A stretch of DNA of 64,000 nt from Escherichia coli (GCF_045037415.1 NZ_CP173438.1), one strand, 5' to 3'; numbered from the stretch's first letter, positions 22,101-28,100 are shown. A program made the numbers.

Positions 22101-25100
22101 AAATACGGGTATTCGCGCCGATAACAACCTCACCGGCACTTTCATCAATAATCACCTGGTCTGCAATCTGAACATTTTTCTCTTTAGCATTAAGCTTCAG
22201 ATAGTTTTTCAGTTCCTGTGACAGAAGGTTGGGAATAAGCGGTTGACGCTTCCACCAGTGCGGAATAGCGGGTGGGTTTGTCGCGCTGAGGTTCGCGTCC
22301 AGTAAAAAAGGCAATAAGTCCATAAATAATCCAGATGGCATAAGCTAATAATACATACACAACGGAAAGCGGTGCTAAAGGCACCAACAACCAGCAACGA
22401 TGAAACCAGGCGCTAAATGCACCAATAACACAAACTACGCCGACCCAGATAAGCGGGAACATTGCCAACACCACACCATGTGGCCCGGTGGTGATGAATT
22501 CATTAAACCAGGTAGTGAGATAAATACCAACGCCATAAAGCACAACCAACAGCATAGGAAATATACTGAAGATACCGAAGCGGCTAAATAAAAGTCTTTT
22601 ATGCAGGCGCATACAGACCGCGTAGCCCACAATCCAACGCCGCCAGCGGCGCCACTCCTCACGCGGACTGTTACATTCCTGTGGGTATACGATGCAGCGA
22701 TTCGCCTGCCGAATACGGTAGCCGTTTGCCACCAACGTCCAGGTGAGATCAAGGTCTTCGACTTTAGTACGATCAGAGAAACCGAACTTACGCAATACAT
22801 CAGTACGGAACATCCCGCAGGCACCGCTGATAATAAACGGTGCACCGCCCAGAAACTGCTGTAGCGTGCGCTTCATAACAATCATCGGCAACTTTACGGT
22901 GGCGCGGATATGTGGCAGCAGACCTGCCCCTTTTAACGCGGTGGAGGGAATTCCGCCAACGGCATCAGCGCCGCGCTCAATTTCTGCCAGCATATAGCCC
23001 ATTCCATCATTATCAGGTGGAACGAAAGTATCTGCATCACTTAAAAATACTTGATCACACGTGGCGTATTTTAGTCCATGCATTAGTGCGCCACCTTTAC
23101 CGGTGTTTTTTTGCGTGACGGCAACAAAGCGGTCGCCCCATTTGCGTTTGACTTCCGCCATGACCGCTTCGGTATTGTCCGTGGATCCGTCGTTAACGCA
23201 AATTACCCGGCAAAAATAAGGGTTACGCAGCAGATTATCCAGTGACTGCGCCAGACACGGGCCTTCGTTATAAGCTGGTATAATGGCGTCAATACAGCCT
23301 TTCTTTTGACAGGGTTTACGTCTTAGCGTACTTAAAAACCATAGCAACATTGCTATGGTCATGAAGATAAATAACAAAGTTTTCATTTCTATTACTCCGT
23401 TACAACACCATCTTATGGACAACAAAACCTTCACACATAGAATGACTAACCTGTTGTCCTCGGAATTTGGCTTGAGCAATTATGTATTCTGGCTGTATGT
23501 ATCTTCGATGGATCTGGCTTTTATGCTTTTGTAATGCTAATATTTTTTTATTAAAATGGACCTCATCTACAGATTCAAAAACTTGAGGTAAAAATGACAG
23601 ACATGTACTTGGTGTTTCGTATCCTAGTATTTGAGGAATATAACGACAGGCAACCATTGATGCCTGATAAACAGCAATGTGATCCTGATGCCTGTCAGTA
23701 TTATTCATGGTGTAAACTCGAGTAATTTCCACATCCTGGGGCGTTTCATTCTCAATTATGTATTCCAGAGATGATATCATCTCTTTTATTTGCAAATATA
23801 ATCTGGTATCTTCAAAATTTAGAGGGATTAGTTTATTGCATCCTAACATATTTAATGCTTCTTGTGATTCCTTGTGACGATCAATATACTCTGCGCCACA
23901 GCAACCAGGTGTCATGACAACAGATATAATATATACTTTTTCATTAGAATAATATGAAAGAGATGCACCACATCCTAATTCTATATCATCAGGATGGGCA
24001 CCAATTGCTAAAATGCCGGTTCTTTTTCCCGAAGATGTTGTAGAATTCAACATGTAATCTATCCTTTTAGATATGCCATATGAATCCCCATCATAAATTA
24101 TCACTATCATAAAAATTAATCTTATTAAATATACTTTATATTTACTTTTTCAGAGGCAGAGAAGCATCATTTATGCAACAAGAAGATCTTCATTTCTGTT
24201 AAAAAAACAGAGTTTATATGCTATTACGGATTTCAGTCGTAGCAAGTTGAACTGTGATCGCATTAAGACTAATCTTCTGGCTTGTAAAGGCCTTAGTTCC
24301 GTCATGACTCTCCCATCAGGCCATAGTTGAGCAAAATCCTGAAAGAATTATCACCTATTGTATCTTCAGATACGGGAGTTTTTGTCCAGTATTGTTGGAA
24401 TAATCATGTGACTATATTGTTCTTGTAGTTGGAACGTCTTATAAATAAAACGAAAAGGCAGTAAGTTTGTTGTATTTATTGATATTTTTCATTCAGTTAG
24501 TTGGCAATAATCAGTTATGGTTGTATTCAAAAGTACAGCTAGAACGAAATTAAAATAACGGGAGCATCGTACATGACTTGATATTTCAGAGGGCTAAGTA
24601 TTAATATATTACTACGATCTGTCATCATTGACTATCAATATATTAGTTAGTTAAATATCTCTTTGTGTCATTCTGGCTAGTATATACTCATTATCATGAA
24701 TGCTGCCATGCATAGCTAGGTCATCACCAATTAATGATATTCTCTGGATAATGATTCAAGAGTTTAAGTTCATTGTATATATAAGTTTGTATTCAAAGGT
24801 AATAAATTCCTTGTTTATTATTTCTCATGAAAATAGTTAAGAAGGAGTGAAGAGTCTGTTTTTTTGGTAGGAGAGTCTTTATTTATGTGTTTGCTATTAA
24901 TGAATTTTTGTTAAGGTAGCCTCATTTGTCATAATTTTGCTAATATATGTATCGTCATATGTCGTGTTTTACTAAAAACTTAACTATCATGAACTCGTGA
25001 TAGTAACAATATACCCTTAAGGTAGAACTTTTTCTTGATGAGAAGGTTTAAGTTTGTAGTTCAGAATATTACTGCCAAGATAGTTTATACTAGGATATGT

Positions 25101-28100
25101 ATGGGAACCATACAGAAGATAAGAACAGATGTTAATGTATTATATGCGGCCATTCACCGTATTGAGTGGTTGTTTGAGACATTTTCATCTGTTTGTTTGT
25201 CTTTTTCTGGAGGAAAAGACTCTACTGTGCTGCTCCATCTTACGGCCGATGTGGCTCGCAGGAAGAAACGTCGTTTCTCTGTATTATTCATTGACTGGGA
25301 AGCTCAGTACCAGTGCACAATTGCACACATTCTGAAGATGAGGGAGATGTATCGGGATGTGACGGAGACTTTTTACTGGGTGGCACTCCCCCTGACTACG
25401 GTAAACGGTGTCTCTCAGTTTCAGCCGGAATGGATATGCTGGGAACCAGGTGTGGAGTGGGTTCGTCAGCCACCAGATGACGCTATTACAGATATGTCGT
25501 ATTTCCCATTTTATCGGTATGCCATGACGTTTGAAGAATTTGTTCCGGCATTTTCTTCCTGGTTTGCCGGTAACCGGTGTGGAGTGGCAATACTGACTGG
25601 TGTTCGTGCTGATGAATCGCTCAATCGCTTTATGGGACTGGTGTCTCAGCGCAAACTGAGATATGCAGATGATAAACCCTGGACCACAGCGTCACCTGAA
25701 GGGTTTTATTACACCTTGTATCCGTTGTATGACTGGAAAGCCCGTGATATATGGATATATAACGCCAGAACCCGAGCTATCTACAATCCCCTGTATGACC
25801 TGATGTACCGTGCCGGCGTGCCGTTACGCAACATGCGGGTCTGTGAGCCTTTTGGCCCGGAACAGCGTAAGGGACTGTGGCTTTACCATGTTCTGGAGCC
25901 GGAAACTTGGGCCAGGATGTGTGAGCGGGTGTCGGGTGCTGCCAGCGGGGCGCTTTATGCCAATGAGAGCGGTGCCTATTTTGCCCTGCGTAAGCGTATC
26001 ACGAAGCCACCTCATCATACCTGGCGTAGCTATGCGATGTTCCTGCTGGATGTGATGCCGGAAAGAACGGCAGAACATTACCGTAATAAAATTGCTGTCT
26101 ACCTGCGCTGGTATCAGACGCGGGGCTTCCCGGATGACATCCCGGATGAACAGGAGAATGACCTGGGGAGCCGGGATATCCCGTCTTGGCGACGTATCTG
26201 TAAGACACTCATAAAGAATGATTTCTGGTGCCGGACCCTCTCCTTCAGTCCGAACAAACCCCGGCACTATGAACGTTATCTGCAGCGTATGAAAGAAAGG
26301 AGGAAGGAATGGGGGATTCTGTGACACCTGAGGTGGAAGTATTGAGCAACATGATTCGACAGTACTTCAGTCAGGAACGATCTGAAGAAGAGACCATACG
26401 AGCCCTTAATCATCTGCGCAGGGTGTTGCATGAGGTCAGCCCTTTTGCACAGGAGCCTGTGGACTGTGTGTTGTGGGTGAAAGCGGATGAGGTGGTGGCC
26501 AACGATTACAATCCCAATGTCATGTCTTCCAGTGAAAAAAAACTGCTTAAACATTCACTGGAGCAGGATGGATTCACGCAGCCTGTGGTGGTTTCGGAAG
26601 AGAAGGAGCATTATCTGGTCGTGGATGGTTTTCATCGTCAGTTGCTGGGCAGGAAAGCGGATACGAGAAAACGTCTGAAGGGTTGGCTGCCAGTGACCTG
26701 TATTAATCCGGAAAGAAAGGGACAGGCATCACGTATTGCCGCAACCATACGGCATAACCGTGCCAGGGGAAAACACCAGATAACGTCAATGTCTGACATT
26801 GTCAGGGACCTTTCGCGTCTGGGCTGGACAGATGAGCGTATTGGCACAGAGTTGGGCATGGACCAGGATGAAGTGCTGAGGCTGAAACAGATTAGCGGGC
26901 TGACAGAGCTGTTTCAGGAAGAGAATTTCAGCCCTTCATGGACGGTTCGTTGATATTGTAAAATATGATAGTTGGAGTAAGGGGCAATAGAAGGAGAATA
27001 TTTATCCCACCTTCTTCCGAGTCGGGATAAATCAAAAGGTATTATCCATTGATTCAGTATCTGGGTGAGAGTAAATAATCTAAAAATAGTATTGCGTTGT
27101 GAACTGATATCACTTTTGAATTACAAAGGTATAGGCTCAGTAACCAGCTTTATAAGTCATTGTCGTAGCAATGACTATAGAGTCATGCTGGCGGGAAGAA
27201 TAAATATTCACCCCCAGATGGAAAACAACGTCGAAAAACCTTCAACAAACACAATACGTTCGTTAGCCTGCCCGCAAAGCGGGCAGATCAGGACAAAGAA
27301 TTCCATAACGATTGTTTTTGTCATCAGAAATTCCATACAAAACCTATAGCTGCATTAAAACCTGCTGCAGGAATAGTTTCATGTGCTGTACGGTAGCGTT
27401 TGTCTGTCAGGTTATTGAGTGCTAGGTTAATCCGGTACTGATCCTCGTTACCGAATTCTGTATTTACTGCAAAGTTGAGAGTGGCCCAGCCCGGAACATT
27501 TGTTTCGGTACCGTTACTGTCATCTTTTGCACTAGAGGCAGCACGAATAAAAACATCAGAGATTATGTTGGCCTGACCCATCACAAGAGTATGTTTCAGC
27601 CCTATACGTCCGTTTATCGCTGGTTCTCCTGTATTAGTTGTTTTTAATGTTGAAGTTTCATATTGCCGACGAATTAAATTGCCACTGATATATGGCGAGA
27701 AAACCCAGCCATTATATTCCGCGCTTATTTCCAGTCCCCATGTTTTTGCCCGATCAATATTGTCATAATAATAGTAGCTACTACGGGAGGAGTTGGTGTT
27801 ACCATTGCAAACTATACTGCCATCACAGATCAGACTTGCAATATAATCTTTAGCTTCTGAGTAGTAAACTGCGCTGTCAATCAGCCACTGATTACCATTA
27901 TATCGTGCACCTAATTCAAAGTTATTGGAGTGTTCAGCCTTAAGATCAGGATTTCCGTATGTGACACTGCCGCCCGCAGATGTCTGCATAAAAAGCTGGG
28001 AGAGTGTGGGAAATACGTAGCCTTGCGCGAACGCAGCGCGTAACTCCAAGTTATCGAAACCTGAATAGCGCAGGCTTGTAGATGTTACCATTTCGTGATC

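Follow-up and report, generated by a model that had tools for sequence, protein, structure and literature searches.

The ibrA–ibrB pair of an Escherichia coli island encodes a PP-loop enzyme with no invariant cysteine and a ParB/sulfiredoxin-type partner

The Escherichia coli genes ibrA and ibrB are described as joint activators of the eib genes, which encode immunoglobulin-binding proteins (Sandt 2002, as cited in PMC7649339 and PMC6008420). This is the sole role reported in the literature searched, in agreement with a preliminary description of the locus treated here. YbdM, the K-12 paralogue of IbrB, was termed 'completely uncharacterized' in 2022 (PMC8764527), and the literature searched contained nothing newer on mechanism. 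Here, we report on an ibrAB pair at positions 25101–26953 of a 64,000-nucleotide stretch of E. coli DNA (NZ_CP173438.1), referred to below as the window, whose positions are used for all gene coordinates. The encoded IbrA has 91.6% protein identity to the IbrA annotated in Escherichia phage PhiR5_2, the gene order and a 16-nucleotide overlap of the two genes are the same as in the known pair, and the partner of IbrA carries the NCBI product name 'IbrB-like domain-containing protein'. The original assignment of the pair as IbrA/IbrB is thus upheld, and the locus is an intact, expressed-looking copy of the known genes. Public databases contain such copies in great number. The analysis below indicates a conserved two-gene module that does not appear to be a Dnd system of sulfur-based DNA modification.

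IbrA (WP_001542270.1; 407 amino acids from the RefSeq start) is encoded on the + strand at 25101–26324. Pfam reports a split PAPS_reduct domain (named after phosphoadenosine phosphosulfate, PAPS) together with DUF3440, and the AlphaFold2 (AF2) model is confident, with a predicted local distance difference test (pLDDT) score of 90.7. Comparison of the model with solved structures agrees with Pfam and shows a PP-loop enzyme, in which the catalytic domain of the PAPS-reductase/flavin mononucleotide (FMN)-adenylyltransferase/CysD branch (residues ~31–237; 25191–25811, including the motif GVRADESLNR) is followed by a family-specific, all-helical DUF3440 domain (residues ~239–407; 25815–26321). No solved structural counterpart was found for the latter. 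Members of this branch handle an AMP-phospho or AMP-sulfo linkage. The PP-loop, SFSGGKDS (residues 34–41; 25200–25223), was read directly from the sequence, fits the pattern SGGxDS, lies where the first strand of a Rossmann-like fold ends and is conserved in homologues, so that the intact loop and PAPS-reductase-type fold first proposed for this protein are confirmed. In an alignment of 51 diverse homologues the invariant residues are G38, K39 and S41 of the PP-loop, D65, E67, S173 of a GxRxxESxxR motif, D216 and Y232. The form S[GA]GKDS is retained at 161 of the 162 loci surveyed below, the lone exception being a truncated open reading frame (ORF). As judged from these alignments, the ATP-binding loop and the GxRxxESxxR substrate motif are kept almost everywhere in the IbrA family.

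No cysteine is invariant among the same 51 homologues. The best-conserved cysteine column (88%) is occupied by alanine in the window's IbrA, C248 is a cysteine in 53% of the homologues, and the other cysteine positions of the family occur in mosaic patterns, with some members keeping just one of five. These observations bear on the view that IbrA is a true PAPS reductase (CysH), an auxiliary metabolic gene of sulfate assimilation beside an unrelated ParB-like gene. The RefSeq product name is indeed 'phosphoadenosine phosphosulfate reductase', and a survey of viral organosulfur genes groups a DUF3440-bearing clade with CysH (bioRxiv 10.1101/2021.01.05.425418). However, IbrA scores only 25–36 bits against the NCBIfam CysH, PAPS-reductase and CysD models, the cut-offs of which are 154–413 (for CysH, 25–32 bits against 154–254), and the catalytic C-terminal cysteine of CysH, in the motif ECGLH, has no conserved counterpart. 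The obligate ParB/helix-turn-helix (HTH) partner and the SNF2 helicase described below also point away from sulfur metabolism. We therefore find this view scarcely credible, and the RefSeq name is probably a misnomer, reflecting a superfamily label and not a function.

IbrB (WP_000502870.1; 214 amino acids; 26309–26953, + strand) was modelled with a pLDDT of 86.7. Its single sequence barely reaches the Pfam ParB_N model (E = 0.004), whereas a profile built from 38 homologues matches the N-domains of Noc and ParB (E = 2e-6). A direct homologue search had returned only relatives at ≥75% identity, and the diverse IbrB sequences were accordingly drawn from the surveyed loci. The first domain (residues ~50–156; 26456–26776) matches ParB-N, PadC, KorB, sulfiredoxin (Srx), SbnI and serine kinase structures, and the second region (residues ~158–201; 26780–26911, with the motif LGMDxDEvLRLKQ) matches HTH structures of the KorB and sigma-region-4 types. 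IbrB is thereby shown to consist of a ParB/sulfiredoxin domain of nucleotide-binding type followed by an HTH. Two motifs are invariant in the family, namely DG[F/Y]HR (DGFHR in 146 of 159 homologues; residues 106–110, 26624–26638, in the window) and RHNRARGxH (26750–26776). In the profile comparison DGFHR aligns with the GERRxR box and, because this box is common to ParB and Noc, we regard the motif as a superfamily feature and not as a DndB signature. The preliminary description was accordingly right about the ParB/sulfiredoxin fold, but the kinship it saw between DGFHR and the DGQHR domain of DndB gives way to an alignment with the general box II of ParB. Nor does IbrB have the hallmarks of a ParB CTPase clamp, as its box II reads DGFHR instead of GERRxR and the chain ends soon after the HTH, without a C-terminal dimerisation domain.

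The two proteins are encoded together throughout the family. A search of 1.8 billion representative sequences with an IbrA profile gave 1828 IbrA-family clusters at E ≤ 1e-3, of which 304 reach E ≤ 1e-30. We examined a genome set of 79 one-genome-per-species contigs plus four further records (L001–L083) and a viral set of 80 contigs. Hosts among the genome contigs include Enterobacteriaceae, Verrucomicrobiota, Bacteroidota, Clostridia, Listeria and Mollicutes, with further contigs from Alphaproteobacteria, Helicobacter, Desulfobacteraceae, Lentisphaeria, an Asgard archaeon and an actinobacterium that we place in the Eggerthellaceae (Rubneribacter). Of the 82 IbrA-bearing loci of the genome set, 79 have an IbrB-like ORF next to IbrA and in the same orientation, the exceptions including a 1.5-kb contig and an IbrA gene beside a contig end. 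In the viral set such an ORF lies within two genes of IbrA in 72 of 79 cases and the order varies. Overall, 156 of 162 loci are paired and in 94 the genes overlap or abut. The pairwise distances of IbrA and IbrB correlate (r = 0.65), a value reached in none of 500 permutations. The family can thus be described as a PAPS_reduct–DUF3440 protein beside a ParB/Srx-HTH protein of ~170–215 residues on the same strand, and the two genes are shown to be almost always adjacent, codirectional, usually overlapping and co-diverging.

A third gene recurs with the pair. In 18 of the 83 genome and annotated-phage loci, phage Pika among them, the gene directly upstream of IbrA and codirectional with it encodes an SNF2-like helicase of ~415 residues, which is also present in 18 of the 80 viral loci; examples are found at L003 4833–6002 and L032 1202–2458. 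It shows weak matches to DrmD, ZorD and DpdE. The three-gene version occurs in Firmicutes, Verrucomicrobiota, Bacteroidota, Alphaproteobacteria and phages, and the helicase is absent from the E. coli window. Apart from IbrB and this helicase, no other neighbour family recurs across lineages in the 83 genome or annotated and 80 viral loci. In phages the neighbours of ibrAB are YqaJ exonuclease, RecT/Erf, DnaB, Sak4, helicase and primase genes.

These results speak to the idea that ibrAB is a minimal DndC/DndB-type module for phosphorothioation or defence, as was first suggested for the locus. The same two superfamilies are present in Dnd, with a PP-loop protein in DndC and a ParB-like protein in DndB, and SNF2 helicases are likewise found with Dnd, Dpd and DISARM systems. 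In addition, IbrA gives weak, partial matches to two PADLOC models, BrxP (E = 8e-6, confined to the PP-loop region) and DndC (E = 5.5e-4). Neither is convincing, however, and among the PADLOC-DB v2 defence models IbrA has only such partial PP-loop matches and IbrB has none. IbrB showed no match at E ≤ 10 to the DndB or DGQHR models of NCBIfam and PADLOC, a search in which HMMER filters can hide very weak matches. DndC requires cysteines that ligate a [4Fe-4S] cluster, such as C280 of the Salmonella enzyme (PMC11662687), whereas IbrA has no consistent cysteine set for such a cluster. No cysteine desulfurase, DndD/E, DndFGH, restriction partner or other effector recurs near the 162 loci. Finally, most homologues are phage-borne, which also argues against the suggestion. 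We consider a Dnd-like role very improbable.

An activity of ibrAB directed at DNA or another nucleic acid is nevertheless plausible from the domain content and the neighbouring genes, the SNF2 partner and the replication and recombination genes of phages providing the link to DNA. Our preferred reading, offered tentatively and at somewhat short of an even chance, is that IbrA transfers adenylyl groups at the expense of ATP and is recruited by IbrB to DNA or to a DNA-bound target. The two proteins would act as a putative complex in which IbrB would bind DNA through its HTH and a nucleotide in its ParB/Srx pocket (DGFHR and RHNRARGxH), and would position or activate IbrA. IbrA would in turn spend ATP to adenylylate an oxygen on the DNA or on the DNA-bound target. 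The product may be a non-sulfur mark or an activated intermediate, and not a phosphorothioate; we propose this because no sulfur-carrying residue is conserved in IbrA. In phages the complex might serve an early function in DNA metabolism, for which a translocase of the SNF2 type would sometimes give help. The activity could also alter the state of silenced prophage or island DNA when the pair is carried by an E. coli island, which would account for the need for both genes in switching on the prophage eib genes.

Several points weigh against this proposal. The closest relatives of IbrA among solved structures have small-molecule substrates (FMN, sulfate and PAPS) and not DNA, the substrate of IbrA is one that we infer in its entirety, and small-molecule kinases (SbnI and the serine kinase) are among the top structural matches of IbrB. 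A conserved IbrB-binding repeat was not found near the ibrAB genes. The literature searched held no biochemical or DNA-modification data on any family member, in line with the earlier statement that the biochemistry of the pair is uncharacterised. Furthermore, K-12 carries ybdNM but is not known to have an unexplained DNA modification. This last argument is tempered by the finding that YbdO represses ybdNM, the expression of which is poor (PMC9068703).

A more far-reaching form of our proposal is in our view possible but doubtful. In it, IbrAB would be a nucleic-acid modification machine of a new kind, in many cases joined by an SNF2 translocase, and its ParB/Srx-HTH protein would guide a cysteine-free PP-loop adenylyltransferase to DNA. 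If it were true, a non-sulfur covalent mark, or an adenylylated intermediate resolved by a nucleophile, would be installed on DNA, phages across bacteria and Asgard archaea would use IbrAB to protect or reprogramme DNA, and its recruitment by E. coli islands would have served to release prophage genes from silencing.

The small-molecule substrates of the solved IbrA relatives are also the first point in favour of the main rival, in which DNA is left chemically unchanged and IbrA makes a small nucleotide-type molecule that switches IbrB. This ligand could be an adenylylated metabolite, by analogy with the synthesis of flavin adenine dinucleotide (FAD) or adenosine phosphosulfate (APS), bound in the non-canonical ParB/Srx pocket, and IbrB would then load on DNA in the manner of VirB, KorB or Noc and remodel or counter-silence AT-rich acquired genes. 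IbrB has the ParB-N and HTH layout of KorB, Noc and VirB; activation of eib transcription is the only phenotype known from the sources cited above; and the E. coli cassette lies in AT-rich islands beside genes for surface proteins and regulators, namely a PerC-family regulator, cah, hyxB, K88 fimbrial genes or a TonB-dependent receptor. However, DGFHR stands in place of GERRxR, the CTP box, and IbrB lacks a C-terminal dimerisation domain like that of ParB clamps. Pure regulation does not readily account for the SNF2 partner, nor for the fact that phages of many phyla, lytic as well as temperate, carry the pair among genes for replication and recombination. The upstream regions are not conserved either: those of five ibrAB contexts do not align, with no common operator evident. 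We regard regulation by such a ligand as unlikely, while giving it real weight.

The phage loci bear on a further alternative, namely an accessory role in counter-defence, DNA protection, packaging or replication, the target of which is not DNA chemistry as such. The pair might, for example, adenylylate or inactivate a nuclease or nucleoid protein of the host, or its ParB-like protein might serve as a small-terminase or origin-binding factor. IbrA homologues are encoded in 224 phage records, and in many phages two ParB-like paralogues flank IbrA (100 ParB-like ORFs in 77 viral loci). The order in mycobacteriophage Pipefish is ParB–gp2–gp3–IbrA-like–ParB–TerL (L084 1–2822), the set directly preceding the large terminase (TerL), and TerL and the portal gene flank the pair in Flavobacterium phage FCV-1. 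Clustering, on the other hand, finds terminase adjacency in only a few of the 80 viral loci, no conserved neighbour suggests a protein target, and the core chromosomal copies (ybdNM, as ybdO-ybdNM, in Enterobacteriaceae and lmo1309/1310 in Listeria) have no packaging context. A role of this kind seems to us decidedly unlikely. We note that no small terminase is annotated among the listed genes upstream of the large terminase of Pipefish, and that ParB/Srx paralogues are also arranged around the IbrA homologue of Microcystis phage Mwe-JY13 (L004 4909–7194).

Some family members have unusual domain arrangements. P0268, an IbrA homologue of 631 residues, contains an insert of ~235 residues (residues ~218–453) between the conserved WDYN and YD motifs, which we read as an intein; inteins usually lie in the catalytic cores of DNA-metabolism proteins. 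A weak Pfam Intein_splicing match (E = 0.08) was obtained for one unnamed member of ten long IbrA homologues. Beyond the intein, the extra domains of IbrA fusion proteins amount to one ABC_tran match in a single member and weak matches. A full IbrA–IbrB fusion was not seen among the IbrA representatives scanned. In P0230 (281 residues) and P0226 (327 residues) an IbrB-type ParB/Srx N-domain is joined directly to the C-terminal DUF3440 region of IbrA; these are either real domain shuffles, which would tie both domains together in function, or assembly or frameshift artefacts. A separate suggestion, based on guilt by association in TASmania, is that lmo1309/1310 form a toxin–antitoxin pair. We reject it because it is founded only on adjacency to a ParB-like 'antitoxin' model and because overexpression of YbdM lowers the growth rate by just 10% (PMC8764527).

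In the window the two genes are translationally coupled on the + strand, as originally proposed: the ibrA stop codon (TGA, 26322–26324) lies within the 16-nucleotide overlap with ibrB (26309–26324), and a Shine–Dalgarno sequence, AGGAGG, occupies 26298–26303 within the 3' end of ibrA, 5 nucleotides ahead of the ibrB ATG at 26309. The extent first given for ibrA stands as an ORF, but ATG 25038 is probably not its start. That ATG and a TTG at 25035, which opens the longest ORF, are in-frame alternatives to the RefSeq start, ATG 25101, and the latter is the likelier because the alignments of the 51 homologues open near that residue. The AT-rich flanks were confirmed by a GC scan, which gave 28–35% over ~23800–25200, 39–43% over 26800–27400 and ~50% within the genes. 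A non-coding spacer of 28–35% GC precedes ibrA (24111–25100, no strand assigned), varies between ibrAB contexts and presumably holds the ibrA promoter; a promoter scan upstream of ibrA returned nine promoter-like sites against 7.7 expected from shuffled sequences, i.e. shuffle level. Downstream, 47 nucleotides past the ibrB stop, a hairpin with a 9-bp stem, ATTTATCCC (15 nt) GGGATAAAT, was read from the + strand at 27000–27032. It has no T tract, and a terminator scan near ibrAB called none, so that it is a possible, weakly indicated end of the ibrAB transcript. An Rfam scan near the pair gave no RNA element, and the direct and inverted repeats found around it in the search for an IbrB operator look like chance.

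The ratio of nonsynonymous to synonymous substitution (dN/dS) for ibrA and ibrB is 0.05–0.12 against four alleles (from a phage, the O157 island, a plasmid and Citrobacter). By this measure purifying selection on both genes is strong in E. coli, so that an active enzyme is maintained even in settings where the name 'regulator' has been given to it. IbrA and IbrB match PHROG 2302 and 2159 with E values of 4.8e-83 and 1.6e-86, respectively, and the exact IbrA and exact IbrB proteins each occur on at least 1000 public contigs. Given these matches, the low dN/dS and this abundance, the two are real genes and not chance ORFs. The coding region is found in 2138 of 5426 complete E. coli genomes (~39%) at ≥80% nucleotide identity, with up to four copies per genome and 83 plasmid copies, whereas the flanks of the window are common to only 843 E. 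coli genomes. The upstream sequences differ completely from one context to another, so that the mobile unit is the two ORFs alone. We conclude that the two genes form a self-contained module, for which phages, prophages, islands and plasmids serve as vehicles. Among E. coli records matching window positions 24400–27300 (H1–H6, e.g. NZ_CM132302.1 and NZ_CP107134.1), several strains with no other difference from the window (100% identity) have the insertion sequence (IS) IS1 or ISEc52 within ibrAB and a split IbrB annotation; the pair is thus dispensable and is undergoing inactivation in some lineages.

The window is colinear with E. coli strain 4/1-1, and its ibrAB pair lies in an island that contains several IS elements. 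To the left, across the AT-rich spacer and divergent from ibrA, is a low-GC cluster of four genes (20856–24062, − strand) encoding a yaiO-family outer-membrane β-barrel, an acetyltransferase, the yaiP glycosyltransferase and a PIG-L deacetylase, which has the appearance of a unit for modifying surface polysaccharides and belongs to this island too. To the right, a TonB-dependent receptor gene (27324–29471, − strand) is convergent on ibrB, its annotated end being ~370 nucleotides past the ibrB stop, and is followed by cobUST, three tRNA-Asn genes and the yersiniabactin island. The three tRNA genes (34575–34647, 36984–37056 and 38805–38877) score identically, and their counterparts in the colinear strain carry the annotation tRNA-Asn. 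Positions 48250–63372 hold the right part of the yersiniabactin high-pathogenicity island, with fyuA, ybtE, ybtT/U and irp1. The ibrAB island sits in this asn-tRNA integration hotspot. Elsewhere the settings differ. A plasmid copy adjoins hyxB, K88 fimbrial genes and the gene for an S6-family peptidase that we take to be a SPATE-type autotransporter. In the E. coli O157:H7 island a PerC-family regulator lies 78 nucleotides 3' of ibrB on the same strand (L086 10870–11139), with cah nearby, and a published transcriptome reports that ibrB and perC transcripts rise together upon host-cell contact (PMC7649339).

With the pair carried by ~39% of complete E. coli genomes, on virulence plasmids in some cases, by hundreds of phages from unrelated hosts and, as core paralogues, by K-12 and Listeria, its function is of some consequence. 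If ibrAB modifies DNA it would constitute a new phage epigenetic system, and if it is a ligand-gated ParB-like regulator it would represent a new type of virulence-gene counter-silencing. What the present work contributes is the evidence against a sulfur-based or Dnd interpretation, the motif set S[GA]GKDS, GxRxxESxxR, DGFHR and RHNRARGxH, and the recurrent SNF2 partner.

Comparison with known systems places the two proteins between several groups. Relative to FMN adenylyltransferase (the PAPS domain of FAD synthase), CysD and the APS/PAPS reductases, IbrA has only ~15–23% identity over ~170 residues; it adds a helical domain of 170 residues, lacks the catalytic cysteine of CysH and scores far below the curated cut-offs. 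The likeness to DndC/DndB, and also to SspD and BrxP, lies in the combination of a PAPS-reductase-type PP-loop pyrophosphatase with a ParB-superfamily protein and in the SNF2-type helicases of related systems. In contrast to these, ibrAB is without Fe–S or catalytic cysteines, DGQHR membership, a desulfurase, DndD, DndE or a restriction module, DUF3440 stands in place of the C-terminal region of DndC, and the pair is mostly phage-borne. With ParB, Noc, KorB and VirB, IbrB shares an N-terminal ParB/Srx domain followed by an HTH and a similar box I (LxxSIxxxGxxxPivV); in the Protein Data Bank its best match by sequence is to Noc (E = 2e-6), and the top matches by fold include KorB. It differs from them in DGFHR, the invariant RHNRARGxH, the obligate enzyme partner and the absence of a C-terminal dimerisation domain.

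The logic of the mechanism that we propose has a parallel in the DpdA/DpdB 7-deazaguanine system, in which the ParB-like NTPase DpdB assists a base-modifying enzyme on DNA (PMC12839542), and the same clusters contain an SNF2-type helicase, DpdE. The Dpd enzyme, however, is a TGT-fold transglycosylase and not a PP-loop protein, and no Dpd homology was found for IbrA or IbrB. Much closer are YbdN and YbdM of K-12, a paralogous pair of the same architecture and order with 60% (IbrA/YbdN) and 55–57% (IbrB/YbdM) identity, which differ in being core chromosomal, not mobile, and in adjoining the LysR regulator YbdO/CitR that represses them (PMC9068703). Closest of all are IbrA and IbrB of E. coli ECOR-9 (Sandt, Hopper and Hill 2002) and the copies annotated in prophages and islands of E. 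coli; they are the same gene pair, and no structural difference from them is apparent. What sets the window allele apart from other ibrAB copies is its location, between the yaiO–yaiP–PIG-L cluster and the TonB-dependent receptor gene, near tRNA-Asn and the yersiniabactin island.

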